Shown: positions 1-51,290 of the stretch, one piece after another
Layout of the letters: each line of letters starts with the position of its first letter
Numbering within the stretch: position 1 is the first letter of the stretch
Source of the DNA: a virus
Length of the DNA: 64,000 nt
Direction: 5' to 3' (one strand)
Virus record (IMG/VR): IMGVR_UViG_3300021602_000003
Coordinates: 102,257 to 166,256 of that record
The notes under the pieces: model-generated
What the model saw: the letters and a program-made list of their open reading frames with translations, nothing else
What the model was told of the DNA's origin: nothing
The model's database searches: none
Translations under genes and position numbers: made by a program

Positions 1-273
1 CTTAGTAAGATTAATCGGATCGTTGAGTACTTTAGTAAGAGGCCGCAAATCCAAGAGCGACTAACTGAGCAGATTTATCATGCACTACAATATATTCTTG
101 AAACAGATAATATCGGAGTAGTTATTCATGCTCAACATTTTTGTGTTAAGAGTCGTGGCGTGGAAGATGTGGGATCGAGTACTGTAACAAGTAAATTGGG
201 CGGGTGTTTTAAAGATGAATCGCACGTTCGTTCTGAATTTATGAGATTAGTGCCGGTAGATTCACGGAGATAA
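1..273 (+). CDS. folE: GTP cyclohydrolase I, C-terminal part (runs off window start)
   Basis: Not in the ORF track. Frame 1 reads LSKINRIVEYFSKRPQIQERLTEQI...AQHFCVKSRGVED...GGCF...RSEF*, the typical FolE C-terminus. Confidence 0.93.
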   Translation, partial: LSKINRIVEYFSKRPQIQERLTEQIYHALQYILETDNIGVVIHAQHFCVKSRGVEDVGSSTVTSKLGGCFKDESHVRSEFMRLVPVDSRR

Positions 274-284
274 GGATATCTTAT

Positions 285-752
285 ATGATCTTTAATAAAA
301 GTAAAGAACTAAAAGGTATGAAGGTAGGGATTGTTTTCTCTACCTTCGATTTACTACATGCTGGACATATAGCAATGTTGAGCGAAGCTAAAAATCATTG
401 CGACTATTTAATAGCAGGATTGCAGACAGATCCGACAATCGACAGGCCAGGAATTAAGAACAAGCCTGTCCAGAGTATTGTAGAAAGACAAATACAACTT
501 GCCACAAATAGAAATGTAGACGAAGTAGTTGTATATGAAACTGAAAAAGATCTAGAAGACTTATTGTTAATTTTACCAGTTAATGTAAGAATACTAGGTG
601 TAGAGTATAAAGATATATCCTTTACTGGAAAAGATATATGTCGTAACCGAAATATTGAAATAGTATATAACGGACGCGATCATAGTTTTAGTTCCAGTAA
701 TCTACGAAAGCGTGTGGCAGATTCTGAAAATTGTAAGGAGAAACTACTATGA
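285..752 (+). CDS. TagD-like cytidylyltransferase (HIGH nucleotidyltransferase)
   Basis: FDLLHAGH motif, VDEVVVY, C-terminal SSSNLRKR. Confidence 0.88.
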   Translation: MIFNKSKELKGMKVGIVFSTFDLLHAGHIAMLSEAKNHCDYLIAGLQTDPTIDRPGIKNKPVQSIVERQIQLATNRNVDEVVVYETEKDLEDLLLILPVNVRILGVEYKDISFTGKDICRNRNIEIVYNGRDHSFSSSNLRKRVADSENCKEKLL

Positions 753-38324: not shown

Positions 38325-41273
38325 GTGTATATTGATGCCTCCTTCAAGAGATCGGGCGAAGAAGAAACAATCAGGATAGTAGAAAGAATAAACGGGGCTC
38401 GTGTTTATAAAGAGTACCAACCTGATTTCCATTTCTTTGTCACTGATCCGCGTGGTTCACACAAAAGTATTTTTGGCGACGCAGTCAAAAAGGTAACGCC
38501 GCGCTCATTTGGCGAAAAACAAAAACTTGTTAAAACATTATCCAGTAATGTCAAGAGTTGGGAATCTGACGTAGATCCTGTCTTTCGATGTCTCGAACAT
38601 AATTATCACAGTGGCGAAGCACCTAAATTAAACGTAGCATTTTTCGATATAGAAACTAGTTTCGATAAAGAACGTGGTTGGTCTGATCCAGCCGATGCAG
38701 ATAATTACATAACAGCTATATCAGTACACTTACAGTGGCAGGATGAAATTATTTGTTTGGCTATTCCACCAGATACACATACCTGGGAAGAAGCAAATGA
38801 AATTGCTAATCAGGTAGGTAATACTGTATTATTCAAAGATGAAGGCGAGATGTTAAATGCCTTCATGGACATTGTAGAAGATGCCGATGTATTATCTGGA
38901 TGGAATTCGGAAGTATATGATATTCCGTATGTAGTTAATCGTATAAAGAAAGTTTTAGGAAAACAAGCGGCCCGAAAGCTATGTCTCTGGGAACAAATGC
39001 CTAAAGAAAGAAAATACGACAGAGGCGGAAAAGAAGCATTTACATACGATCTGATCGGTAGAATATCTATCGACTATATGCAAATTTATAAGAAGTTCAA
39101 CTATGAAGAACGGCATAGTTATGCGCTTAATGCAATTGCAGAAATTGAACTAGGCGAAACTAAAGTACAATATGAAGGTACTCTGGATGAATTATACAAT
39201 GACGATTTTAAGAAGTTTTTAGAGTATAACATACAAGATACACGACTGCTGGATCAGCTTGATAGAAAATTACAGTTTATTGATTTGGCTAATTCTATTG
39301 CACATTCGAGTTGTGTGTTAATTCAGACAATTATGGGTGTTGTGGCAGTTACTGATCAAAACATTCTTATAGAAGCGCATAATCGTAATATGGTGTGCCC
39401 GGATAAGAAGCACGGCGAAGATAGAGAAACTAGAGCAGCAGGCGGATGGGTAGCAACACCTAAGAAGGGTTTACATAGATGGATCGCTTCTACCGACATG
39501 AAGTCTCTGTATCCATCTGTTATTAGAACTCTTAATATGAGCCCTGAAATGATTATTGGGCAGATTAGATTGGATCGTACTAATCAAGCAATTGCTGACT
39601 GGGAAAAGAAAGGCGCAAAATATACATTTGCATCTTGGTGGAACGACAGATTTAATGTGCTAGAGATGGAAGATTTCTATAATCAAGATATCGGCACATC
39701 TATGATATTAGATATGGAAGATGGTTCCGAATTTGAAGTCACTGGTAAAGAACTTCATGACTTAATATTTGAGAGTGGACAGCCTTGGTGCATTAGCGCA
39801 AATGGCACAATATTCAAAACTGATACAGACGGTGTTATTCCTAGTCTATTAACTCGTTGGTATAACGAGCGTAAGATACTTCAAGGTCTCATGGTAAATT
39901 ATCAGGATATAGAAGATAATGCTAAGATCGACGGCGTAAAGGTTTCTGCAGATTTGTTTACGAACGATGACATAAGTGATGTAGAATCAAAGGCAGATCC
40001 TTTCCTGGATTCCGAAGCATATAAACCAAAGAAACTGAAAGAAATTATTTCCGAAGGTCATAAGAAGCGTGTTGTTCAATATATGAACCAACATAACTTA
40101 ATGGTAAAAGATGGTAAAGCAATTCATCGTGACCAGAAGTCACTGAAATCTATAATTGGTTTCTGGGATAAGAGACAGTTAGTTAAGAAAATTAACCTGA
40201 ACTCCGCATACGGCGCTTTGTTAAATGCTGGAAGCAGATTCTTTGATCAACGCCTCGGACAATCTACTACATTAACTGGCAGAACAATTACTAAACATAT
40301 GGCTGCTAAGACTAATGAGATGATAACAAATGAATATGATCATTATGGTAAGTGCATCGTATATGGCGATACTGACTCGTGTTATTTCTCCGCATATCCT
40401 ATTCTTAAAGAAGAGATTGATAGAGGTGAGATAGAGTGGACAAAGGAAAGCATTGTAGATTTGTACAATTCCTTAGCCAAGGCAGTATCTGCAACATTCC
40501 CGGAGTTCTTATTAGGAAGACTAAATGTGCCCATTAAGCGATCCACTGGTGTAATTGCTAGTTCTCGTGAAACAGTGTCCGAAACAGGATTATGGATTGT
40601 TAAGAAACGTTATGCTTGTCTTATGTATGATAAGGACGGAATTCGACTTGATGCCAGTGGCAAAGTAGGTAAAGTAAAGGCCATGGGTTTGGATTTAAAG
40701 AGGGCTGATACGCCTAAGTTTGTTCAAAAATTCTTATCAGAAATATTAATGGACACATTAACTGGTAAGGGAGAAAATGCTGTCATAGAAAAAATTAAGC
40801 TATTCAAGGAAACATTTGAAAGCATGAAGCCGTGGCAACAAGGTACTCCTCGCGCAGTTAATAGATTAACGCATTATAGAGAAAAGATCGAAGATGCCGG
40901 TGTTAAAAAGTTAAAGGGTATAGAATCCGGGAACTTGCATGTACCGGGTCATGTATCTGCTAGTCTTGCATGGAACAAGCTAAAGGAAATTAATCAAGAC
41001 CAACATGCAATGCGTATCGTCGACGGCCAAAAGATTATTGTTTGTAAGTTAAAAGAAACAACCGAAAATAGATTGTCTAGTATTGCATATCCTGTAGACG
41101 AAACACATTTACCGGAATGGTTCTTAAGTTTGCCATTCGACAGTGACGATATGATGGCAGGCATTGTCGATAAGAAGGTCGAAAATTTATTAGGTGTGCT
41201 TAAATGGGATCTTAGCAGAACCAACAAAGAACATGCACATCTGGAAATGTTGTTTGACTTCAGCAATTGCTGA
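38325..41273 (+). CDS. family B DNA polymerase
   Basis: Exonuclease motifs FDIET, GWN...YD, YN..D; polymerase motifs DMKSLYPS, K...NSAYG, YGDTDS, KKRY; GTG start. Confidence 0.97.
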   Translation: MYIDASFKRSGEEETIRIVERINGARVYKEYQPDFHFFVTDPRGSHKSIFGDAVKKVTPRSFGEKQKLVKTLSSNVKSWESDVDPVFRCLEHNYHSGEAPKLNVAFFDIETSFDKERGWSDPADADNYITAISVHLQWQDEIICLAIPPDTHTWEEANEIANQVGNTVLFKDEGEMLNAFMDIVEDADVLSGWNSEVYDIPYVVNRIKKVLGKQAARKLCLWEQMPKERKYDRGGKEAFTYDLIGRISIDYMQIYKKFNYEERHSYALNAIAEIELGETKVQYEGTLDELYNDDFKKFLEYNIQDTRLLDQLDRKLQFIDLANSIAHSSCVLIQTIMGVVAVTDQNILIEAHNRNMVCPDKKHGEDRETRAAGGWVATPKKGLHRWIASTDMKSLYPSVIRTLNMSPEMIIGQIRLDRTNQAIADWEKKGAKYTFASWWNDRFNVLEMEDFYNQDIGTSMILDMEDGSEFEVTGKELHDLIFESGQPWCISANGTIFKTDTDGVIPSLLTRWYNERKILQGLMVNYQDIEDNAKIDGVKVSADLFTNDDISDVESKADPFLDSEAYKPKKLKEIISEGHKKRVVQYMNQHNLMVKDGKAIHRDQKSLKSIIGFWDKRQLVKKINLNSAYGALLNAGSRFFDQRLGQSTTLTGRTITKHMAAKTNEMITNEYDHYGKCIVYGDTDSCYFSAYPILKEEIDRGEIEWTKESIVDLYNSLAKAVSATFPEFLLGRLNVPIKRSTGVIASSRETVSETGLWIVKKRYACLMYDKDGIRLDASGKVGKVKAMGLDLKRADTPKFVQKFLSEILMDTLTGKGENAVIEKIKLFKETFESMKPWQQGTPRAVNRLTHYREKIEDAGVKKLKGIESGNLHVPGHVSASLAWNKLKEINQDQHAMRIVDGQKIIVCKLKETTENRLSSIAYPVDETHLPEWFLSLPFDSDDMMAGIVDKKVENLLGVLKWDLSRTNKEHAHLEMLFDFSNC

Positions 41274-41327: not shown

Positions 41328-42074
41328 ATGTTATTAGATTCATTTAAGGATATCATTAAGCACACAAATTCGTTAGGCTTTATTGATATGGTAAAAATTG
41401 TAGGTACAGCAACAGATGCAAAGATTGAAGCACTAGATGCAGATAAGACTGTTGTTATTTTTGGAACTATGTATCAGCCTATCGCAGGCATTGATTCTGT
41501 TGTGGGATTATCTCGCATTCCAGTGTTAAAGAGCTTCATCGACTTTCCTCCGTTCTCGGATCCTAAAGCTAAGACAGACATAGTTACGGAATCCCGACCA
41601 GGCGGTGCTACTGTTCCTTCAGGTATTGAATTCGACAGTGGTAAATCTACTGCAAATTATCGTTTCATGGGTGAGGCGATGGTTAACGAACAAATCAAAG
41701 TTCCGCCGTTCAAGGGTGCGACATGGAATGTAGTTATTACGCCGGAAAAGAAGAAGATTACAGAACTGTCTTATATGCAAGGTGCTTTGGGTTCCTTGGA
41801 AAAGAGATTTACAGTTAGTGTTGATAGCAAGAACACACTAGTATTTGCTGTGGGTTCTGGTCCTGCGGATAAGATGGATATTTCTTTCGCTGACAATGTA
41901 ACGGGTACATTGAAGCATCAGTGGTCGTGGCCTTTGTCGCAAGTTCTTAGTATCTTGAAATTAACAGAGACAGCTACAGCAACAATGAGCTTTTCCGATA
42001 TGGGTGTGATGAAGATTGACGTTGACAGCGGTATAGGAAAATATACATATCTTCTGCCAGCTGGTAAGGCTTAA
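41328..42074 (+). CDS. probable sliding clamp
   Basis: 248 aa, two-repeat beta/alpha pattern ending G...Y.YLLP; immediately after polB; clamp loader present. Confidence 0.6.
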   Translation: MLLDSFKDIIKHTNSLGFIDMVKIVGTATDAKIEALDADKTVVIFGTMYQPIAGIDSVVGLSRIPVLKSFIDFPPFSDPKAKTDIVTESRPGGATVPSGIEFDSGKSTANYRFMGEAMVNEQIKVPPFKGATWNVVITPEKKKITELSYMQGALGSLEKRFTVSVDSKNTLVFAVGSGPADKMDISFADNVTGTLKHQWSWPLSQVLSILKLTETATATMSFSDMGVMKIDVDSGIGKYTYLLPAGKA

Positions 42075-42086
42075 GGTCTGCACTAT

Positions 42087-43691
42087 ATGGCAAACAGGAT
42101 AAATTTTACAGAACGTCAAGAAGCAGGTGGCTGGGCAAAATTCTTGCCAGCTATCAGCGGTTTCTATACAACACATTTGGGTAAGGACCTATCGGACGAA
42201 ACCTTTGTTCCTGTAGAACGTCTACCGAAGGGGTTTGAATTTGGGTTGCAAGGTCTTAATTTCTTTGATCCGGATTACAGTTATTTTAACTATAAGTATG
42301 GATTATTTTCCGCAGGCCATGCTGAACGTAAGTTAGATAGGTGCGATGATAGAGAGCCTATGATTCACAGACGTCAGCGTGATAAAACGATTCTGGTAGG
42401 AGATTCGGGCGGTTTTCAGGTTGCTAAGGGTGTTATTAAGCTTGACTGGGCAACTGTGAAGGGTCCGGAAGGGGATAAATTAAGAGAAGAAATTCTTCGA
42501 TATTTAGAACATACATCCGACTGGAGTATGACACTCGATGTACCTGCGTTTGCTGCAACAGAGCCGTTCAGCGCAAAGACAGGACTTACTAAATTTGAAG
42601 ACACATTAGACGTCTCGATACACAATCTTCACTATTTTATTAAAAACAGGGTAATAGGCGCCACAAAATTCCTTAATGTGCTTTCCGGAAGCGATTCGGA
42701 TACATCTAAGAAGTGGTACGAGGGTGTAAAGGCATTTAGCGACAAACATAAAGTAGAACATGATCTGGGATATGATCCTGCAAGGACCTTCGAAGGATAT
42801 GCTTTTGCTGGTGTCAATATGCGTAATATGCAATGCACACTGGAGCGCCTTCTTAATCTTCGTGACGAGGGGTTATTAGAAGGTAAAGATTGGATTCACT
42901 TTCTTGGTGTGGGTAGATTAGATTGGGCATGTTATCTGACATCAATCGAACGGCAGCTTAAGAAACACATTAATCCCAATGTAAATATTAGTTTTGATGC
43001 TGCATCCCCGTTTGTTGCAGCCGGCGGATATGCATTATCATATACTTATAATCACCATACAACTAATAGATTAACTTATTCTATGGATAAGGGATTAGAC
43101 GATAAGCGACTTAAAGGGTCTAAAATGGCAATGCCGTTTGGTGGTCCCATTATGGAGAGAATAACAGCCGGTGATATATGCGTTATGGGTCCCGATGATG
43201 AGAACAAACATGGTAAGATAGGTAAAACGAGCTGGGATACTACTTCATATGCAATTATCATGGCGCACAATGTTCATAATCATCTAGAGGCTGTTCAGGA
43301 AGTCAACCGATTAGCAGATATGGAATATGCGAGAATGAAGCCGGTAGTTAAGAAAATTACTCCGTTGGGAGAATGTAGCTTATTTGATCACGATGCTATA
43401 GATGAAGCCGAATGGGAAAGATTCGATTATAGAAATTGGTACATGTATTTAAACAAGAATACCAAATTAAGCGAGTACATACCGAATTCAATATTATTGT
43501 TCAATGATTTTGCCGAGAAACTGTTTGATCCCGAAACAAAAGACCCATATAAGATGCTCAAAGACTATACGCTATTTCTTAAAGATATTAGTTTTGGAAG
43601 AGATGCAGATAATAATATGAATCTAGAAACTATGGATCCTCCGGAGATGTATCCAGACTACGATAAAGATGCAGCATCTGAAAATGAATGA
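42087..43691 (+). CDS. dpdA: TGT-fold transglycosylase, DpdA-like (7-deazaguanine insertion into DNA)
   Basis: GDSGGFQ, MTLDVP, IHFLG, SFDAASP, late H-N motif; folE, queD and queE in the same window. Confidence 0.72.
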   Translation: MANRINFTERQEAGGWAKFLPAISGFYTTHLGKDLSDETFVPVERLPKGFEFGLQGLNFFDPDYSYFNYKYGLFSAGHAERKLDRCDDREPMIHRRQRDKTILVGDSGGFQVAKGVIKLDWATVKGPEGDKLREEILRYLEHTSDWSMTLDVPAFAATEPFSAKTGLTKFEDTLDVSIHNLHYFIKNRVIGATKFLNVLSGSDSDTSKKWYEGVKAFSDKHKVEHDLGYDPARTFEGYAFAGVNMRNMQCTLERLLNLRDEGLLEGKDWIHFLGVGRLDWACYLTSIERQLKKHINPNVNISFDAASPFVAAGGYALSYTYNHHTTNRLTYSMDKGLDDKRLKGSKMAMPFGGPIMERITAGDICVMGPDDENKHGKIGKTSWDTTSYAIIMAHNVHNHLEAVQEVNRLADMEYARMKPVVKKITPLGECSLFDHDAIDEAEWERFDYRNWYMYLNKNTKLSEYIPNSILLFNDFAEKLFDPETKDPYKMLKDYTLFLKDISFGRDADNNMNLETMDPPEMYPDYDKDAASENE

Positions 43692-43923
43692 ACGATTACA
43701 AAAGGATCTTAGTTCTTTAGAGAACTTGATTGGCATACAAAGTGATTGCGTAATTGCGGGCGACCCTAGTGTACAATACATGCACGGAATGTTGAATGGG
43801 CTTATATGTGCCCATGCAATATTTTCAGACACTGATCCGGACTACCATGACAGGGGGTGTCGGCCTAAGCGCATTAAAATACGGCACAAAAGTAACGGAC
43901 TAAGATTAAGAAGGTTAGGATGA
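43684..43923 (+). CDS. hypothetical protein
   Basis: YMHGMLNGLI motif; overlaps the previous stop. Confidence 0.55.
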   Translation: MNERLQKDLSSLENLIGIQSDCVIAGDPSVQYMHGMLNGLICAHAIFSDTDPDYHDRGCRPKRIKIRHKSNGLRLRRLG

Positions 43924-43927
43924 AAAT

Positions 43928-44224
43928 ATGAAAAAGAAACTATACATTGTGGATACAATCTCTACATTTAGATGCCGTTATGTTATTGAAGCAAACGAGC
44001 TCGAACATGCCTATGACGAAGTAACAATGATTGATTCTGGTAATGAAGCGGATGTGTTTACAGAAGTAACACAACGTCACTTAGGCGAAACTATTATCGA
44101 TGGTAGAGAAATTACTAAGAAAGAATTCGACAATATGCTCAAAGACTTAGCAAAAGATGATAATGAAAATTGTTCTCATTGGATGGGTGATAAGTTGATT
44201 CGTGTTATCGACTATGACAGATAA
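43928..44224 (+). CDS. hypothetical protein
   Basis: ORF with AGGA RBS. Confidence 0.7.
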   Translation: MKKKLYIVDTISTFRCRYVIEANELEHAYDEVTMIDSGNEADVFTEVTQRHLGETIIDGREITKKEFDNMLKDLAKDDNENCSHWMGDKLIRVIDYDR

Positions 44225-44498
44225 GATAAAGCCTATCGGTATATCCGAAAGTATATCGATTAATTACATCCAGGATATCCGTCCTCGGGAGTATTTTAAG
44301 AACGTCAAAGATATGACTGAAGACGAGCGGGCAGACGAGATTGTTCGCCGTCTAAGCCAACCTTATAAAACACTCGACGAGCGTTTAGAAGATGAGATCT
44401 TGGCTGTTATGTCAGCAGAGATAACCAAAGAAATAGATAACGAAATAATAAAACAGATGCAAACAATGTATGGCGGCAAAAAGCATAGTTCATACTGA
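44214..44498 (+). CDS. hypothetical protein
   Basis: Overlapping operon ORF; C-terminal MSAEITKEIDNEII. Confidence 0.55.
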   Translation: MTDKIKPIGISESISINYIQDIRPREYFKNVKDMTEDERADEIVRRLSQPYKTLDERLEDEILAVMSAEITKEIDNEIIKQMQTMYGGKKHSSY

Positions 44499-44715
44499 TT
44501 TATTAGACAATGCGATTTCAGTAGGAAATCACGTCGCCTTTTGTAGAAATAATAATTTAGTATTGGGTGCGGTTATTAAAATAACACCTAAACTAATACG
44601 TGTTATATCTATATCGTCGTATGGTAAAAAGTCTTATCTTATATATCCAAAGCAAGCAATATTATTACAAGAATCAGATATGATAGTATATCTATTAAAA
44701 CATTCGGGAGATTAA
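44470..44715 (+). CDS. small SH3-like hypothetical protein
   Basis: D.L...ISVG..VAF.......G.V.KITPK. Confidence 0.6.
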   Translation: MAAKSIVHTDLLDNAISVGNHVAFCRNNNLVLGAVIKITPKLIRVISISSYGKKSYLIYPKQAILLQESDMIVYLLKHSGD

Positions 44716-45576
44716 ATGAAAGCATTATTGGCAGGGTTCGGCGGAATAGGCGCTAACGTCTATTGGCCCGAATTACAGAAGTTAGGTTACGATGTAGATG
44801 TATTAGATGCAAGAACAGATAATGCTACATATAGAGATGCATCGGAAATTAATAAAGCATACGATATAGCAGTAATCTGCACACCCAATTTTACGCATGG
44901 GCCTATCGCAGAACGATTGGCAGAGACAGGTACAAAACAAATCTTTGTAGAGAAACCGGGCCTTGTAGATTCGTGGGCATGGAGTCAACTTAAATATAAG
45001 TATGCCAACACAACATTCCATTTAGTAAAAAATAACTTGTATAGAGATAGTTATGGCGATATATTTGAATTAGTACGAAGCAAGAAAGTAATTGGTATCG
45101 ATATTAATTGGATAAACGATAATCGTATTCCTAACCCCGGTAGCTGGTTCACTGATAAGGATTCTTCCTTTGGCGGGATCTCGCGTGATTTAATGCCACA
45201 CCTGTATTGTTTTGCTGTAAAATTATTTGGTGAAGATATTATAAAGAAAACATCATTCAAACAATCCAGTTACCAGAGATGGAATCTTTCGTCAATTTCT
45301 TCCACAGATTACGGGACAGTTTATCCTAACGGTGTATATGATGTAGATGATACAGCATTTGCAATAACAACAATAAATGGCATTTCTGTAAAACTATATG
45401 CAGCCTGGAAAGAGGGATACGATAAACAATCTATCACTTTGTACTTTAAAGATGGCACAACATATGAATGGGTGTTTGGATTATGCCCCGCAGAAGCATA
45501 CGGTAAAATGTTAACAAATACATCCGATAGCTATTCACTGGATTTAGAAATTCATAGATTTTTGGAGAGATTTTAA
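44716..45576 (+). CDS. Gfo/Idh/MocA family oxidoreductase
   Basis: GFGGIG, ICTPNFTH, VEKP, GG..RDL..H. Confidence 0.85.
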   Translation: MKALLAGFGGIGANVYWPELQKLGYDVDVLDARTDNATYRDASEINKAYDIAVICTPNFTHGPIAERLAETGTKQIFVEKPGLVDSWAWSQLKYKYANTTFHLVKNNLYRDSYGDIFELVRSKKVIGIDINWINDNRIPNPGSWFTDKDSSFGGISRDLMPHLYCFAVKLFGEDIIKKTSFKQSSYQRWNLSSISSTDYGTVYPNGVYDVDDTAFAITTINGISVKLYAAWKEGYDKQSITLYFKDGTTYEWVFGLCPAEAYGKMLTNTSDSYSLDLEIHRFLERF

Positions 45577-46478
45577 TGAAGACAAGACTTTTTTATACAA
45601 CCGGTAAACAAGACATCGTAGAAGAGGAATGGGATAAACCCGAACCTAAATCGAATGAAATCGAAGTAAAGTCTGTCTATACTGGTGTTTGTCGTTCCGA
45701 CATCGATATGTATTGTGGTACATTTCAGATGCTACCCAAGACTATACAAGGACACGAAAGTCTGGGTGTAGTTACTAAGGTAGGTAAAGATATAACAACC
45801 GTTAAGGAAGGTGACTATGTTGGCACTCGTGGAGAGCCAGCATTTGCAGATTATTATAACTGCCCGGATAAGATGTTTGTTAAGGTCCCCGATTGTAATC
45901 CTAGATTTATTTTAGAACCTATCGCTTGCGGCATTAACATTGCAAAGAGTATAGTGCCGACTACAAATACAGATATTTTATTGTTAGGTACGGGATTTTT
46001 AGCAACAGTTGTTTATACAATACTCGACAGATATTGGGAAAATAAAGTAGTTGTAGTCGGCGAAGCCAACAAAGATTTCTGGTCAAAACAGAATAATGCA
46101 GAAGTGAAACAATTAAAAGATGTCCAGAATAAAGGCTTCGAATATATCATAGACTTATCTGATAAACCAGAGTATCTGAACTTGAATGTTTATAAGGAAC
46201 GTGCTATAATTGTACTTGCTGCAGAAAAGCATCCGCCAGCAGTAACATCGTTCTCACAGTTCCTCTGGAACGCAGTAGATGTGAAGTTTCCAAGTCCGAG
46301 AAACGAATCATTCTACAGTGCAATGGTATTGGCAGAAGAACTGCTAAGATATGGTGATTTGGATGTAAGCGGATTATGGACAAAGTCGTATGATAGGGAG
46401 ACGCAAGTTAAACTAGCATTCGAAGAAGGGCTTAACCGGCCGCAGAATTATTCCAGAGGATATATAGAATGGAAGTAA
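45576..46478 (+). CDS. MDR/zinc-type alcohol dehydrogenase-like protein
   Basis: GVCRSD, GHES.G.V..VG......GD.V, EP.AC, GTGFL. Confidence 0.85.
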   Translation: MKTRLFYTTGKQDIVEEEWDKPEPKSNEIEVKSVYTGVCRSDIDMYCGTFQMLPKTIQGHESLGVVTKVGKDITTVKEGDYVGTRGEPAFADYYNCPDKMFVKVPDCNPRFILEPIACGINIAKSIVPTTNTDILLLGTGFLATVVYTILDRYWENKVVVVGEANKDFWSKQNNAEVKQLKDVQNKGFEYIIDLSDKPEYLNLNVYKERAIIVLAAEKHPPAVTSFSQFLWNAVDVKFPSPRNESFYSAMVLAEELLRYGDLDVSGLWTKSYDRETQVKLAFEEGLNRPQNYSRGYIEWK

Positions 46479-47587
46479 AACCGACAATTTGGATTTTTAG
46501 TATAGAGCCTATAGAGACTAGATATACGGGGCAATGGCATAGTCATGTCCCTGCTATGTTAGAAGAACAATGCGGACATAAATTCAACATAGTTCAAGTA
46601 GATGGAATTCAAAAAAATACACAAGTCACTCCGGGTGCGTTTTTAAACTTCTCGGATACTAATTATTGGAAAAGTTCACAGTTGTGTAACTGGACAGAAT
46701 TCTATAATAGCGGTAAGGTAACACCCGACGATCATTTCTTATTCACAGATGCGTGGAATCCCACAGTTGTTCAACTAAGATACATGAATGACTTGTTGGG
46801 GCATAATTGGACATTTCACGGACTATGGCATGCAGGCAGTTACGATCCCCATGACTTTCTGGGACGCCTTGTAGGTGATAAGCCTTGGGTTAGATACGCT
46901 GAAAAGAGTTTCTATCACGCTTTTGATCACAACTACTTTGCTACTAAATTTCACATCGACATGTTTGTGGACAATTTGTTAGAAAACGGATTAGCTGAGA
47001 ATCCATGGCACGAAGAAGATAAGTTAGGCATGATCGCAGATAAGAAAATCGTACGTACAGGTTGGCCAATGGAATATATGCCCAACCTGTTTAATGGGTA
47101 CGATTTTAGCGAAAAAGAAGATATCATTATATTCCCACATAGACTCGCACCAGAAAAGCAAGTAGAAATATTTAGGGATCTGGCAGCATCACTTCCAGAA
47201 TATAAATTTATTGTGTGCCAGGATAATAAGCTAACTAAGCACGAATATCATAAATTATTAGCTAAGTCGAAAATTATGTGGTCGGCCAATTTACAAGAGA
47301 CATTAGGGATAAGTCCCCTCGAAGGTGCATTATTAGGTGTTATACCAATGTTACCAGATAGATTAAGTTATTCAGAGATGTATGACAAAAGATACTTATA
47401 TCCGGATGAGTGGACAAGTAGCATGGAAGACTATTATAAACATAAAGACGATATTGTGACATTGATAAAGAACACAATGGGACAATACGACATTATTAGC
47501 AAAGATACAAGGGACAGATTAGCCCCCGAATTACTGAAGGAATACTTCACAGCAACCGGTTTAATAAACCAATTATTAAGGATATGA
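46469..47587 (+). CDS. GT-B (GT4-like) glycosyltransferase
   Basis: FPHRLAPEKQ, QETLGISPLEG (Ex7E), P..P...SY.E. Confidence 0.78.
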   Translation: MEVKPTIWIFSIEPIETRYTGQWHSHVPAMLEEQCGHKFNIVQVDGIQKNTQVTPGAFLNFSDTNYWKSSQLCNWTEFYNSGKVTPDDHFLFTDAWNPTVVQLRYMNDLLGHNWTFHGLWHAGSYDPHDFLGRLVGDKPWVRYAEKSFYHAFDHNYFATKFHIDMFVDNLLENGLAENPWHEEDKLGMIADKKIVRTGWPMEYMPNLFNGYDFSEKEDIIIFPHRLAPEKQVEIFRDLAASLPEYKFIVCQDNKLTKHEYHKLLAKSKIMWSANLQETLGISPLEGALLGVIPMLPDRLSYSEMYDKRYLYPDEWTSSMEDYYKHKDDIVTLIKNTMGQYDIISKDTRDRLAPELLKEYFTATGLINQLLRI

Positions 47588-47588
47588 T

Positions 47589-48377
47589 ATGAGCGAATTT
47601 GTAAGAAAAGGTCATGAAGGCGTAACATTTTTTGTAGGCCCCGAAATTGAGCAGACACCGGCATTTAACAAGAAGACATTATTTGTAGTAGGATTACAGG
47701 ATACGCAAACTATCTTGGATCACGCTAAGAAATATGGCGTCAAGCACATCTTCCTTAGTGCTAACAGGTCGTTCGATTCTGTCGACATGGTAAACGGAAA
47801 GTATATGGTCGGTAACACACTAGCTTCTGACTGGGATAAACAAATCTTGTTCTTGCTTAATGCAGGATTCATGGTATCTTTAGATTATCCAGCGCATAAA
47901 CATGGTATGGTACTCAATATCTTAAATCAGGATGTATGGCAATCTAGGAACTTTGTGCCAGTTCTAAGTGTTGCAATTCCTCATGTAAATACATCCAACA
48001 TTAATTTAACAATTAAGATTGATGACATTAATTTTGGTGCAACAAATCCCGGTGTATGGTGTATGAATCATCACGAAGTAACAGATAGCAATCGCTTCAC
48101 AAGTTGGAGTGAATATGTAGATGATGTTATTATTACAACAGAGCAGCCCAAACAGGCGCTAAATAAGCCATTGAGCGATGTAAAGAATCAAGCAGAGTTA
48201 GGACTTGATCCAGACGCTAAATCACAACTGAAACCGGAAGATGAAGAAACGCAAATCCAGACCGTCAAAACGAGTACTATTCAGACTACTAATGATGCAG
48301 TTGAAGCATATACGGCTGGTACTACGAAAGACCCGCTATCTGCGAAAGAACCGAAAACAGTAAAGGCTAAGAAATGA
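47589..48377 (+). CDS. hypothetical protein in modification cluster
   Basis: 262-aa ORF between the glycosyltransferase and the QueD-like gene. Confidence 0.7.
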   Translation: MSEFVRKGHEGVTFFVGPEIEQTPAFNKKTLFVVGLQDTQTILDHAKKYGVKHIFLSANRSFDSVDMVNGKYMVGNTLASDWDKQILFLLNAGFMVSLDYPAHKHGMVLNILNQDVWQSRNFVPVLSVAIPHVNTSNINLTIKIDDINFGATNPGVWCMNHHEVTDSNRFTSWSEYVDDVIITTEQPKQALNKPLSDVKNQAELGLDPDAKSQLKPEDEETQIQTVKTSTIQTTNDAVEAYTAGTTKDPLSAKEPKTVKAKK

Positions 48378-48532
48378 GACAGCCAGACCCAAAATTACAT
48401 CAACGAGTTAGTTTCGTTAAGAGTGCATTACGTATTATCGCAGGGTGCAGCCTTGCTGTAGGGAATCTATTCTTTGCAGGTACAATGATTGTAGTTGCAG
48501 AGATATTGGGTATTATCGAAGAGATTGTATGA
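48374..48532 (+). CDS. small membrane protein (52 aa)
   Basis: Hand-translated MRQPDPKLHQRVSFVKSALRIIAG...AEILGIIEEIV; ATGA-coupled on both sides. Confidence 0.65.
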   Translation: MRQPDPKLHQRVSFVKSALRIIAGCSLAVGNLFFAGTMIVVAEILGIIEEIV

Positions 48533-48903
48533 TTAAGAGATATATAAACGTAAAGTTTACTAAAGAAGGTACACATAGGTATCCGGAAGCATTAACAGAT
48601 CCTACCTTAAAGACGGGTAATTGGGATGATGTATCTTTCTTAGGACACGAACACTTCCACTATTTTTACTTTGTTGTAACTGTTGAAGTATTCCAGAACA
48701 ATCGTGATATAGAATTCATTCAGTTTAGACGATGGCTGGAATCCTTATATCTGGAAGAACTAAAAATGGACTATATGAGCTGTGAGATGTTAGCAGAACA
48801 GCTTATCGATAAAATTCGATACAGATATGAAGGTAGATACATTAAGGTAGAGATTTACGAAGATAACATTAATGGCGGAATATTAGAATATTTTCCTAAC
48901 TAA
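48529..48903 (+). CDS. second QueD/PTPS-like T-fold protein
   Basis: EG.H.Y...HEHFHYF...RDIEF...SCE.LA...V.IYED..NG; start ATG 48529. Confidence 0.6.
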   Translation: MIKRYINVKFTKEGTHRYPEALTDPTLKTGNWDDVSFLGHEHFHYFYFVVTVEVFQNNRDIEFIQFRRWLESLYLEELKMDYMSCEMLAEQLIDKIRYRYEGRYIKVEIYEDNINGGILEYFPN

Positions 48904-49871
48904 TGAAAAGACATAACATTCTGGTTACCGGAGGCTGTGGATTTATAGGCACGCAAGTAGTATATAAGTTACATGAAGAAGGCCACAAAATTACTATTGT
49001 GGATAAGAATACGCAGAACTGGAATGGTCCGGGCGAAGTTATCGAATCAGATTATTGTGACTTCATTAAAACAAATACAACTAAATTTGATACAATAGTA
49101 CATCTAGCAGCGGAGCATATTGTACCGCAAAGCCTGTCAGAGCCGGCTAAATATTACACGAATAATGTGGTAAAAATGCAGGTTATGCTCGATCATATGG
49201 TCGCTATAGGCATAAAAAATATCATCTTTAGTTCTACCGGAAATTTATATGGCCGGCAAGGCAGAGCGCTATATCTAAAAGAAGATATGTATTATGATCC
49301 AGAGAATTCCTATGCATCGTCTAAGACAGCAGGCGAATTAATGATCAGGGATTATGCAAGAGCATATGGCATCAAGTATATAACATTTAGATACTTTAAT
49401 GCCGCCGGGGCCGATCCGGAATGTCGATTCGGATATACACAGCGACCTGCTACTCATGTTATCCCAGTTATATGTAATAAAATAATGAATAACGAAGTGT
49501 TTCAAATATTTGGTAACAACTATGCTACTAAAGACGGAACTTGTGTTAGGGACTACATTCATGTAGCTGACTTAGCAGATGGTCATGTACAGGCGATAGA
49601 ATTCCTTAATGCTGGATATAGTAATGAAATATTTAACTTAGGTGGCGGTACTGGAGGTATAAGTTTAATAGAACTAGTGAAATATGCAAGCGAAGTAGTT
49701 GGCAAAAAGCCCATATATGAATACGCAGGACCTCGTGAAGGAGACCCTGCAATATTAACGGCATGTATAGATAAAGCTAAGAACATATTACACTGGAAAC
49801 CTCAATATAATATAAGAGATATTATTTCACATGCATGGAATTGGGAGAAAAAGTTTGAAACAAGTAAATGA
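48903..49871 (+). CDS. galE: UDP-glucose 4-epimerase
   Basis: TGGCGFIG, YASSK, RYFNAAGA, DGTCVRDYIHV.DLA.GH, R.GDP. Confidence 0.9.
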   Translation: MKRHNILVTGGCGFIGTQVVYKLHEEGHKITIVDKNTQNWNGPGEVIESDYCDFIKTNTTKFDTIVHLAAEHIVPQSLSEPAKYYTNNVVKMQVMLDHMVAIGIKNIIFSSTGNLYGRQGRALYLKEDMYYDPENSYASSKTAGELMIRDYARAYGIKYITFRYFNAAGADPECRFGYTQRPATHVIPVICNKIMNNEVFQIFGNNYATKDGTCVRDYIHVADLADGHVQAIEFLNAGYSNEIFNLGGGTGGISLIELVKYASEVVGKKPIYEYAGPREGDPAILTACIDKAKNILHWKPQYNIRDIISHAWNWEKKFETSK

Positions 49872-50154
49872 TCATCAGGAAGAATGTCTTAATATTCTTC
49901 AGGAAGAATGTGCTGAAGTAATTCAGGCAGCATCTAAAATTAAACGATTTGGTGTAGTAGGTAAGAATCCAGCTTCTACAACAACCAATCTTGAAAATTT
50001 AGAAATGGAATTAGGCGATGTATTAGCGTTGGTAGATATGGTTACTAACGCGAATCTCGGTGTTACCGCTTCTGGAATAGAAAAAGCCCGTGTTAATAAG
50101 ATGATAAGACTATCTAAATATATGCATACGTGGGGCGACTCATCTGGTGTATAA
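49855..50154 (+). CDS. MazG-like protein
   Basis: QEECAEVIQA.SK..RFG....ELGDV; probable TTG start after GGAGA. Confidence 0.7.
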   Translation: MKQVNDHQEECLNILQEECAEVIQAASKIKRFGVVGKNPASTTTNLENLEMELGDVLALVDMVTNANLGVTASGIEKARVNKMIRLSKYMHTWGDSSGV

Positions 50155-50167
50155 TCCGATGGGTGAC

Positions 50168-50196
50168 TTGACTTACATGTCGAAAATCACTATAAT
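50168..50196 (+). promoter_or_regulatory. sigma70 promoter for the queE unit
   Basis: TTGACT-17nt-TATAAT. Confidence 0.8.
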
Positions 50197-50214
50197 ATCA
50201 GATAAGGACTATAT

Positions 50215-50391
50215 ATGAAAAGATACATATTCGAATTTGTGATAGAAGAAACAGATGACGAATTTTGGTCTGATATTAATGCTCGTGGTGTCACTGGCTG
50301 TGAAGAAGTTTCAGGATTTGTATATGATGCATTTAATAATGAATTCGAAGGTGTTAAAGTTAAACTTGTTAAATTCGAGGATAAAGAATAA
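50215..50391 (+). CDS. small acidic protein (58 aa)
   Basis: Hand-translated MKRYIFEFVIEETDDEFW...; AAGGA RBS; TAATG coupling to queE. Confidence 0.7.
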   Translation: MKRYIFEFVIEETDDEFWSDINARGVTGCEEVSGFVYDAFNNEFEGVKVKLVKFEDKE

Positions 50392-51290
50392 TGTTTGGTA
50401 CTAATACTATAATCGGTAAGAAATTTTTTGATAAAGCACCTAAAGATAGCTTGTATGTTACAAGTATGTTCTTTACGTTGCAAGGTGAAGGACCTTATGC
50501 GGGGTTACCTGCACTATTCATCAGACTATCAAAATGTAATTTAGCATGTTCTTTTTGCGATACATTCTTCGATGATGGCACATGGATGACCTATCAAGAA
50601 ATAAATGCTAAAGTTTATCAAACTATTATGAACTATTGGGTTGCCACACGAAAAGAATGTGCACCGCAATGGGTTATACCGTCAACTAAAGACACACTTC
50701 CTGGGATGATGTATCCTAATGTAATCTTGGTAATTACGGGCGGTGAACCTATGCTACAATCTAACCTATTAGGGTTTATGGATAAGGCATTAGAGCGATT
50801 CAAAGCAGTTCAGATTGAAACTAATGGCACCATTAGTAGTCCGTATATTGCTAGTAAGGTAACAGTGGTATGTTCTCCCAAATGTTCGGAAAAGAATGGT
50901 GTTGCAACAAAATATCTGGAACCAACTGATATGATTCTTAAGCGGGCAGATTGCCTTAAGTTTGTTATGAGTGCAGATCCAGCAAGCCCATATAGCACCG
51001 TTCCAGAATGGGCACACGAGTGGAAGAGATTGAATCCGGAAAAGGAAATCTATTGTTCGCCCATGAATGTATATAATGACTTCCCGCAAAAGATTAAACT
51101 CCTCAGAGCAGAGAAAGGCGAGATCACAATGGCAGAACGATCTACGGTAGACGAGGTGATTTCTTTCTGGGAACCCGGGTTATTGAACTTGGCAGAAAAT
51201 CAGCGCAATCACGAATACACAGGTAAATACTGTCTTGATCACGGATTCAGACTGAACCTGCAACAGCATTTATATGTAAGCATGGCATAA
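50391..51290 (+). CDS. queE: 7-carboxy-7-deazaguanine synthase (radical SAM)
   Basis: F.TLQGEG...G.PA.FIRL..CNL.C.FCDT, ITGGEP, IETNGT, SPK, LQQH. Confidence 0.9.
   Translation: MFGTNTIIGKKFFDKAPKDSLYVTSMFFTLQGEGPYAGLPALFIRLSKCNLACSFCDTFFDDGTWMTYQEINAKVYQTIMNYWVATRKECAPQWVIPSTKDTLPGMMYPNVILVITGGEPMLQSNLLGFMDKALERFKAVQIETNGTISSPYIASKVTVVCSPKCSEKNGVATKYLEPTDMILKRADCLKFVMSADPASPYSTVPEWAHEWKRLNPEKEIYCSPMNVYNDFPQKIKLLRAEKGEITMAERSTVDEVISFWEPGLLNLAENQRNHEYTGKYCLDHGFRLNLQQHLYVSMA

Follow-up and report, generated by a model that had tools for sequence, protein, structure and literature searches.

The last 64 kb of a 166-kb virus contig in IMG/VR (record IMGVR_UViG_3300021602_000003, positions 102,257 to 166,256; completeness estimated at 43%) carry a group of genes that may together make a sugar-bearing 7-deazaguanine and place it in phage DNA. 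We refer to this whole stretch of 64,000 nucleotides as the window, and positions are counted from its first letter. The core of the group is formed by a DpdA-like transglycosylase, a glycosyltransferase (GT), a conserved protein of about 175 amino acids (aa) and a DpdL-like protein; further members belong to 7-deazaguanine precursor synthesis (FolE, QueD, QueE) and to sugar metabolism, see Table 1. Nearly all genes of the window lie on the + strand. The nearest cultured relatives are Pseudomonas jumbo phages of the PA5oct group (Wroclawvirus), whose gp168 is 49% identical to the transglycosylase of the window. A megablast of the module region against cultured phages gives no match.

Table 1. 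Genes of the module and its surroundings in the window (aa, amino acids; ORF, open reading frame; TGT, tRNA-guanine transglycosylase; HMM, hidden Markov model; MDR, medium-chain dehydrogenase/reductase; SAM, S-adenosylmethionine; UDP, uridine diphosphate).
Feature	Position	Strand	Support
FolE (GTP cyclohydrolase I), C-terminal part	1..273	+	PF01227, E 3e-29
HIGH-family cytidylyl/adenylyltransferase (TagD/ECT/HldE-domain-II-like)	285..752	+	PF01467
QueD (6-carboxytetrahydropterin synthase), phage type	904..1380	+	PF01242, 56.9 bits
Family B DNA polymerase (polB), conserved left neighbour of the module	38325..41273	+	PF00136, PF03104
248-aa protein, possible sliding clamp	41328..42074	+	phrog_12062
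DpdA-like guanine transglycosylase, divergent, 534 aa	42087..43691	+	Fold match to TGT (Z 18.9), hhalign
Four small ORFs (84, 98, 98 and 81 aa)	43669..44715	+	ORF list
Gfo/Idh/MocA-type NAD(P) oxidoreductase, optional accessory	44716..45576	+	PF22725 and PF01408, over cut-off
Zn-dependent MDR (polyol/alcohol) dehydrogenase, optional accessory	45576..46478	+	ADH_N, 45.9 bits
GT-B/GT4-like glycosyltransferase, 372 aa, invariant module member	46469..47587	+	Predicted fold, motif
Conserved core of ~175 aa with low-complexity tail, invariant module member	47589..48377	+	HMM across loci
DpdL-like QueD paralogue (T-fold), 124 aa	48529..48903	+	Homology to phiST DpdL
GalE (UDP-glucose 4-epimerase)	48903..49871	+	TIGR01179, 305.1 bits (cut-off 262.3)
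MazG-like nucleoside triphosphate pyrophosphohydrolase	49831..50154	+	PF03819, 30.5 bits; phrog_4856
QueE (7-carboxy-7-deazaguanine synthase, radical SAM)	50391..51290	+	phrog_2076, E 2.9e-49

An earlier, sequence-only reading of the window had listed many of these genes. Every gene on that list is found at its place and on the + strand in the ORF list, and family searches agree with the names it gave to the Gfo/Idh/MocA oxidoreductase (Gfo), the MDR dehydrogenase, GalE, the MazG-like protein, QueE, FolE and QueD. It had further described a tightly packed row of genes after the transglycosylase; the packing holds, while the four small ORFs at the start of this row had been omitted. Likewise, folE and queD do lie within positions 1-1380, and the cytidylyltransferase gene that separates them had gone unmentioned. 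Overlaps of start and stop codons join Gfo-MDR-GT (the MDR start overlaps the Gfo stop) and DpdL-GalE-MazG (the galE start codon overlaps the DpdL stop), and a single base separates the genes of the GT and the ~175-aa protein. A scan for promoters and terminators gave fewer sites than in shuffled sequence and was uninformative. The isoelectric points of all module proteins are acidic, including that of the DpdA-like one, and are uninformative on DNA binding.

The kinship of the 534-aa protein to TGTs is visible only in profile-profile comparisons and in searches by fold. At E 0.01 the protein matches nothing in Pfam (including PF01702, the TGT family), PHROG or NCBIfam; against the PDB there is no sequence match with phmmer, and the best E in a profile search is 1.6. 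In contrast, its AlphaFold model (predicted local distance difference test, pLDDT, 90.2) matches the PDB in Foldseek with an E of 2.5e-7 and a probability of 1.0, and all 50 hits listed are tRNA-guanine transglycosylases. When aligned to 2ash with VIA-align the model reaches a Z of 18.9 with a root-mean-square deviation of 4.4 over 303 residues, and for bacterial, archaeal and human TGTs Z is 18-19 over about 300 residues.

The sequence contains the motifs DSGGFQ (from D106), TLDVP (from T149), HFLG (from H271) and SFD (from S302). Eight residues do not vary among 69 diverse homologues (S75, D106, S107, G109, P153, H271, G274 and D304), and at least 90% of these share D151. An hhalign comparison with the E. 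coli TGT (probability 88%, E 3e-6) places D106, D151 and D304 on the catalytic residues Asp89, Asp143 and Asp264, the last of which is the nucleophile.

The profile of DpdA2 from Vibrio phage VH7D is matched with a probability of 95% (E 2.6e-8), and its motifs DSGGxQ, xD-xP, QG, HxLG and SxD align. The family further matches gp123, the DpdA of the Acidovorax phage ACP17, at 96.7% and DpdA3 of the Cellulophaga phage phiST at 72%, where the matches to DpdA2-type proteins and DpdA3 span only 84-177 columns; BLAST finds no match of the protein to DpdA2 or DpdA3. Among the references tested, the DNA-acting DpdA2-type proteins thus appear to be the closest. Judged by its modelled fold, its active site and its profile likeness to the validated DpdA2, the 534-aa protein is a putative DpdA-type enzyme. 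The TGT/DpdA-like identity proposed earlier is therefore upheld: the HMM libraries are silent, the fold is that of a TGT with the catalytic trio of aspartates in place, and hhalign points to DpdA2. The family, which comprises at least 761 clusters at 50% identity, is unannotated, and many of its members are found on contigs of 200-390 kb. It may form a separate subfamily, distinct from DpdA2 and DpdA3.

The GT scores 18.2 bits against Pfam PF00534 (Glycos_transf_1), below the cut-off of 26.4, and its relatives score 20.8-23.1 bits. Its model (pLDDT 89.3) has the two Rossmann domains of a GT-B fold. The top matches in Foldseek are BshA (E 2.5e-10), GlgM, MshA, PimB' and BGluT, all at probability 1.0; LmbT is found as well, and a tetrahydrobiopterin glucosyltransferase appears at ranks 38 and 46. 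The E277-x7-E285 motif is intact, and R225, K230 and E285 are invariant in 33 sequences. Fold and motif both agree with the GT4-like assignment of the sequence-only reading.

The surroundings of this gene in other phages are informative. In PA5oct the homologue gp167 (44% identity) sits between gp168 and the DpdL-like gp166, and in ACP17 gp124 (36% identity) sits between the DpdA gp123 and the DpdL gp125. In Xanthomonas phages BUDD and X1 a homologue adjoins DpdA and DpdL; Sinorhizobium phage Phosso has one next to DpdL, and in Burkholderia phage BCSR5 one lies in the vicinity of DpdL.

For uncultured phages we surveyed 49 IMG/VR loci with iterated HMMs, 40 of them with enough downstream sequence. 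In all of these 40 the DpdA-like gene, the GT, the ~175-aa protein and DpdL occur together, in two gene orders. The other genes are less constant across the surveyed loci: GalE is present in 28, the nucleotidyltransferase in 27, FolE in 19, QueE in 16, MazG in nine, and Gfo with MDR in five. When the GT itself was used as the query, all 11 loci retrieved carried the module.

The ~175-aa protein is as constant a partner of the module as the GT. Its core has 26 invariant residues, many of them acidic and others aromatic. None of 24 members matches Pfam, and the profile hits in the PDB are spurious; a low-confidence Atlas model vaguely resembles a partial beta/alpha barrel. The HMM of the family finds ACP17 gp122 and PA5oct gp121, and no homologue in phiST. 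Since neither this family nor the DpdA-like one matches any Pfam model, annotation pipelines miss the whole system. In clade-1 phages residues 186-262 of the protein form a low-complexity tail rich in K, T, Q and E; the tail is absent from the forms of 170-190 aa in clades 2 and 3, ACP17 and PA5oct.

A sugar link to the deazaguanine module is thus well supported by gene association. That the interleaved sugar enzymes are part of the system, as had been suggested earlier, holds for the GT, which stays with DpdA and DpdL in 40 of 40 loci and in unrelated phages; Gfo and MDR turn out to be optional accessories. New here are the GT and the ~175-aa protein as constant partners of DpdA and DpdL, the trio of Gfo, MDR and the ~175-aa protein, the cytidylyltransferase gene between folE and queD, and the mapping of the catalytic residues in the 534-aa form.

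FolE converts GTP to dihydroneopterin triphosphate, from which QueD makes CPH4 and QueE makes 7-carboxy-7-deazaguanine (CDG). The window encodes QueD, a probable QueE and the C-terminal part of FolE. The folE gene starts 411 bases before the window and in its full length reaches 211.7 bits against NF006824 (cut-off 202). QueD has the motif CxxxHGY, common in alignment to the QueD proteins of phiST and ACP17. QueE carries the CxxxCxxC motif as CNLACSFC, and in NCBIfam it matches QueE models best, none of which reaches its cut-off (78.8 versus 200). In one relative QueE has 616 aa (L018:18299-20149), with an intein (Intein_splicing, Hint) directly after the radical SAM cysteine motif. Directly after queD, at 1414-2481, lies a gene for a 355-aa protein with no Pfam or NCBIfam match.

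The protein between the ~175-aa protein and GalE had been recorded as a second QueD-like protein. The paralogy to QueD is real; the more specific identity, DpdL, had been missed and follows from homology and signature, and the gene most likely starts at the ATG at 48529, not at the GTG at 48445. The identity is 28% (E 8e-11) to DpdL of phiST (CGPG_00067) and 42% (E 3e-24) to ACP17 gp125, and the family HMM matches both. Its motif reads L-GHE-H-F-H-Y-F and agrees with the DpdL signature LxxxHRHxF except that F stands in place of R, a change also seen in PA5oct; the metagenomic relatives have HRH. This signature takes the place of CxxxHGH in QueD (PMC10516641), and in alignment the protein lacks the cysteine needed for the chemistry of QueD and 6-pyruvoyltetrahydropterin synthase (PTPS). 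DpdL was named by Cui, Hutinet et al. 2023 and predicted to be a CDG decarboxylase that would give 2'-deoxy-7-deazaguanosine (dDG) (PMC10516641).

DpdL occurs in phages that have FolE, QueD, QueE and a DpdA and that lack QueC (PMC10516641), and this is also the context of DpdL in the window. QueC is missing from PA5oct and from two further complete relatives (G002 and G003), and QueF was not found here. This agrees with the earlier remark that QueC, QueF and ArcS are not visible, and the wider search for queC and queF brought up only weak QueC-like PP-loop paralogues on the source contig, about 100 kb away in an unrelated-looking cluster. Given DpdL, the route would be the QueC-less one of phiST, so the missing QueC, QueF and ArcS need no special explanation. 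By its gene content the system is assigned to this QueC-less, DpdL-type (phiST-type) deazaguanine pathway. The distant cluster itself (G000:C1:300-15000, L004) contains the PP-loop/QueC-like paralogues, a GNAT protein, a methyltransferase and a B12-binding radical SAM enzyme; two of the paralogues pass the Pfam cut-off for QueC with partial matches. It could encode an amidation or ligation pathway.

Several genes could provide an activated sugar. The nucleotidyltransferase between folE and queD most resembles glycerol-3-phosphate and ethanolamine-phosphate cytidylyltransferases and the adenylyltransferase domain of HldE: it scores 68 bits for rfaE_dom_II and 53 bits for TagD, both below cut-off, and matches the glycerol-3-phosphate cytidylyltransferase 1coz over its full length (E 9e-11). 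A copy that is 66-70% identical lies inside the DpdA cluster of clade-2 relatives. In these (L019-L039) there is a second nucleotidyltransferase-like ORF of about 250 aa upstream of polB, besides the copy of 142-171 aa in the module, and a PGDYG-domain protein lies between the nucleotidyltransferase and folE. Gfo matches the inositol 2-dehydrogenase 4hkt weakly and is 30% identical to PA5oct gp123. The PDB matches of MDR are alcohol, xylitol and ketose reductases, and PA5oct gp122 is 36% identical to it (E 7e-60). The trio of Gfo, MDR and the ~175-aa protein is seen both in a third metagenomic clade and in PA5oct (gp123-gp121). The PA5oct protein gp164 (L001:17392-17910, 173 aa) matches the GalE HMM (E 3.6e-15) and looks like a truncated remnant of a short-chain dehydrogenase/reductase or epimerase, or a short form of it, within the PA5oct module.

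On the left side the module has constant neighbours. polB precedes the TGT-like gene in 45 related loci, and the gene for the 248-aa protein always lies between them. For this protein an Atlas feature search lists clusters like gp45/PCNA at 0.93-0.95, which gives no more than a lead. The annotation of its PA5oct counterpart, gp170, as a virion structural protein comes from mass spectrometry and is odd for a sliding clamp. The four small ORFs show no significant family match, and three of them are kept in clade-1 relatives. Two other loci have a 275-aa ORF between the DpdA-like gene and the GT (L018:11760-12587 and L008:12034-12861), in the L018 copy with a DHHA1 (phosphoesterase) domain.

From these genes we propose the following pathway. 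CDG would be made by FolE, QueD and QueE and then be processed by the DpdL-like T-fold protein, possibly by the decarboxylation to 7-deazaguanine predicted for phiST. The DpdA-like enzyme, from its fold, its active site and its relatives, would exchange guanine in phage DNA for the deazapurine, and MazG would trim a nucleotide pool. The GT and the ~175-aa protein would add a sugar-type group to the deazapurine; this could happen before insertion, on the free base or a precursor, or afterwards on the DNA. This role is suggested by gene association: both proteins are invariant here and absent from phiST, whose DNA has plain dDG. The activated donor may be supplied and tailored by GalE, the TagD-like nucleotidyltransferase and, in some phages, Gfo and MDR.

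How firmly can this be held? We put at about even the chance that the module, as read from its genes, is a DNA-modification system of the QueC-less, DpdL-type 7-deazaguanine kind with a glycosylation branch added to it, and we would give much the same odds to a sugar-linked deazapurine pathway of some kind. The chance falls a little short of even that a 7-deazaguanine with a sugar or sugar-derived group, made by the DpdA-like enzyme, DpdL, the GT4 glycosyltransferase and the new ~175-aa enzyme, is present in virion DNA, both in this phage and in its relatives (PA5oct and ACP17 as well as hundreds of uncultured phages). The proposal of a sugar on a deazaguanine DNA base had already been made from the sequence; the deazaguanine module and its association with a GT stand, which supports the proposal in part, and Gfo and MDR are optional.

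A number of observations weigh against a glycosylated base in DNA. A single phage lineage accounts for most of the synteny, so the co-occurrence is partly a matter of shared descent. The nearest relatives of the GT by fold (BshA, MshA, LmbT and BGluT) glycosylate small molecules, not DNA, and towards T4 beta-glucosyltransferase there is no profile relation (hhalign probability 0.1%). Two complete relatives, like ACP17, have neither Gfo nor MDR, which makes these optional tailoring genes, and GalE and the nucleotidyltransferase are not universal across the loci either. Further, 7-deazaguanine, the predicted product of DpdL, has no hydroxyl, amine or carboxyl at C7 that could accept a sugar. The acceptor might instead be CDG, as a glycosyl ester, or another atom, or a handle made by the ~175-aa protein, or the sugar might be added to a precursor. 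Glycosylation of a precursor before insertion would fit both the small-molecule GT4 relatives and the enlarged transglycosylase.

The best surviving alternative, which we nevertheless regard as unlikely, is that the DNA contains plain dDG, or the corresponding deoxynucleoside of CDG, and that the sugar genes act elsewhere, on a virion or host protein or on lipopolysaccharide or capsule against superinfection. They would then adjoin the deazaguanine genes simply through the dense packing of early and middle genes. FolE, QueD, QueE, DpdL, a DpdA-type enzyme and MazG are indeed the full phiST set that gives dDG (PMC10516641), and jumbo phages often carry clusters of nucleoside diphosphate (NDP)-sugar and GT genes that have been assigned to changes of surface polysaccharides (PMC7824862). 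The variability of Gfo, MDR, GalE and the nucleotidyltransferase across loci also agrees with it. Chance packing explains less well that the GT stands by DpdA and DpdL in unrelated lineages whose genomes otherwise differ and, in two gene orders, in every one of the 40 loci, that GalE overlaps the stop codon of DpdL, that the nucleotidyltransferase is placed between folE and queD, and that phiST lacks both the GT and the ~175-aa protein.

A slightly smaller, and still low, probability goes to a GT whose substrate is a small soluble compound of the pathway, which could be a pterin, CDG or the free deazapurine. Its sugar would be a transient handle, a solubilising or self-protecting group, or part of a larger base inserted by the DpdA-like enzyme; as a handle or protection it may leave no sugar on the final DNA base. 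Glycosylated pterins have a precedent in cyanobacteria, which make biopterin glucosides. The best fold matches of the GT, small-molecule GT4 enzymes such as BshA, MshA and LmbT together with the tetrahydrobiopterin glucosyltransferase, point in this direction, and FolE is present with two PTPS/QueD-type proteins. The finding that ACP17 DpdA and DpdL alone give no dDG (PMC10516641) also fits a need for the neighbours gp122 and gp124. Against this reading, a fold shared with GT4 enzymes leaves the choice of acceptor free, the cysteine of QueD/PTPS chemistry is absent from DpdL, and the constant partners QueE and the transglycosylase are not enzymes of a pterin pathway.

That the TGT-fold enzyme modifies phage or host tRNA, with the cluster making a queuosine-like and possibly glycosylated tRNA base, is very improbable: fold and catalytic residues are common to tRNA TGTs and glycosylated queuosine occurs in animal tRNA (PMC12518689), but hhalign scores higher for the DNA-acting DpdA2 type (95-97%) than for the E. 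coli TGT (88%), the DpdA-like gene always follows polB and the clamp-like gene, the partners DpdL and MazG are those of phiST, whose DNA carries dDG, and the DNA of PA5oct is itself restriction-resistant at G-containing sites (PMC12191111). Both a pterin-glycoside pathway and a tRNA target are ranked low.

If a glycosylated deazaguanine is indeed placed in DNA, it would be the first glycosylated purine described there and a new class of DNA base, since the glycosylated DNA bases in the literature searched are all pyrimidines. Lineage-specific sugars would then be set by the accessories GalE, Gfo, MDR and the nucleotidyltransferase. Such a base would matter for the evasion of restriction, CRISPR and END-type nucleases, for work on phage DNA with nanopores or enzymes, and when Pseudomonas jumbo phages are chosen for therapy. 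The module represents a widespread, unannotated extension of phage deazaguanine DNA modification that is present in cultured phages.

Among known systems, the T-even phages are similar in principle. There, 5-hydroxymethylcytosine is glucosylated by alpha- and beta-glucosyltransferases with UDP-glucose of the host, so that a GT-B enzyme of the phage decorates a non-canonical DNA base to escape restriction. The difference is that the modified base is a pyrimidine and that the GT of the window has no profile similarity to the T4 beta-glucosyltransferase.

Our literature search found no paper that describes a glycosylated deazaguanine in DNA. To our knowledge, glycosylated queuosines are the only sugar-bearing 7-deazaguanines in nucleic acid. 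In animal tRNA mannosyl- and galactosyl-queuosine are made by QTMAN and QTGAL (PMC12518689). These enzymes differ from the system described here in that they act on RNA and place the sugar on the cyclopentenediol of queuosine, which a QueC-less pathway cannot make; in a Pfam scan no match of the window proteins to the QTMAN/QTGAL family was seen.

For the transglycosylase the closest comparison is DpdA2 of Vibrio phages VH7D and nt-1, the best profile match among the references tested, with motifs that align to those of the 534-aa protein. DpdA2 of these phages inserts preQ1, preQ0 and CDG into DNA, as shown experimentally (PMC10516641). VH7D and nt-1 use QueC, QueF or ArcS routes and have low modification levels; unlike the window they have no DpdL or GT partners.

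In its pathway the system resembles phiST, which has FolE, QueD, QueE, DpdL with the LxxxH-x-HxF signature and a MazG-like gene next to it, a transglycosylase of the TGT superfamily, no QueC, and a DNA polymerase nearby. The DNA of phiST has been measured to contain plain dDG (PMC10516641). It differs in having no GT, no homologue of the ~175-aa protein and no NDP-sugar genes, and its DpdA3 of 259 aa is only weakly similar (72%) to the 534-aa enzyme.

The module is more completely matched in ACP17, where gp121-gp126 encode FolE, the ~175-aa protein, DpdA, GT, DpdL and QueE in a row. ACP17 differs in being a T4-like phage with a DpdA of 424 aa and without GalE, Gfo and MDR. When DpdA and DpdL of ACP17 or of phiST were expressed in E. 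coli no dDG was obtained, and Cui et al. suggested that further enzymes may be needed (PMC10516641); for ACP17, the parts that this reconstitution lacked may be gp122 and gp124.

Finally, PA5oct has the module split over three places (gp168-gp162, gp123-gp121 and gp177). As in ACP17, its module proteins are all annotated as hypothetical. Iyer et al. 2021 list a deazaguanine system in PA5oct and do not mention sugars, and the genome papers of MIJ3 and PA5oct do not mention DNA modification. PA5oct DNA resists five restriction enzymes with G in their sites, and the phage is targeted by END nucleases, which sense hypermodified G; QueE (gp162) and a PTPS (gp230) have been pointed to, with neither the base nor a transglycosylase named (PMC12191111). 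These published data on restriction and on END nucleases point to a modified G in PA5oct DNA. In likeness to the window, PA5oct has the DpdA-like protein, the GT and DpdL in a row, followed by QueE, with the trio and a cytidylyltransferase elsewhere. The module thus supplies candidate genes for the modified G of PA5oct, and through this phage it is tied to published restriction data.

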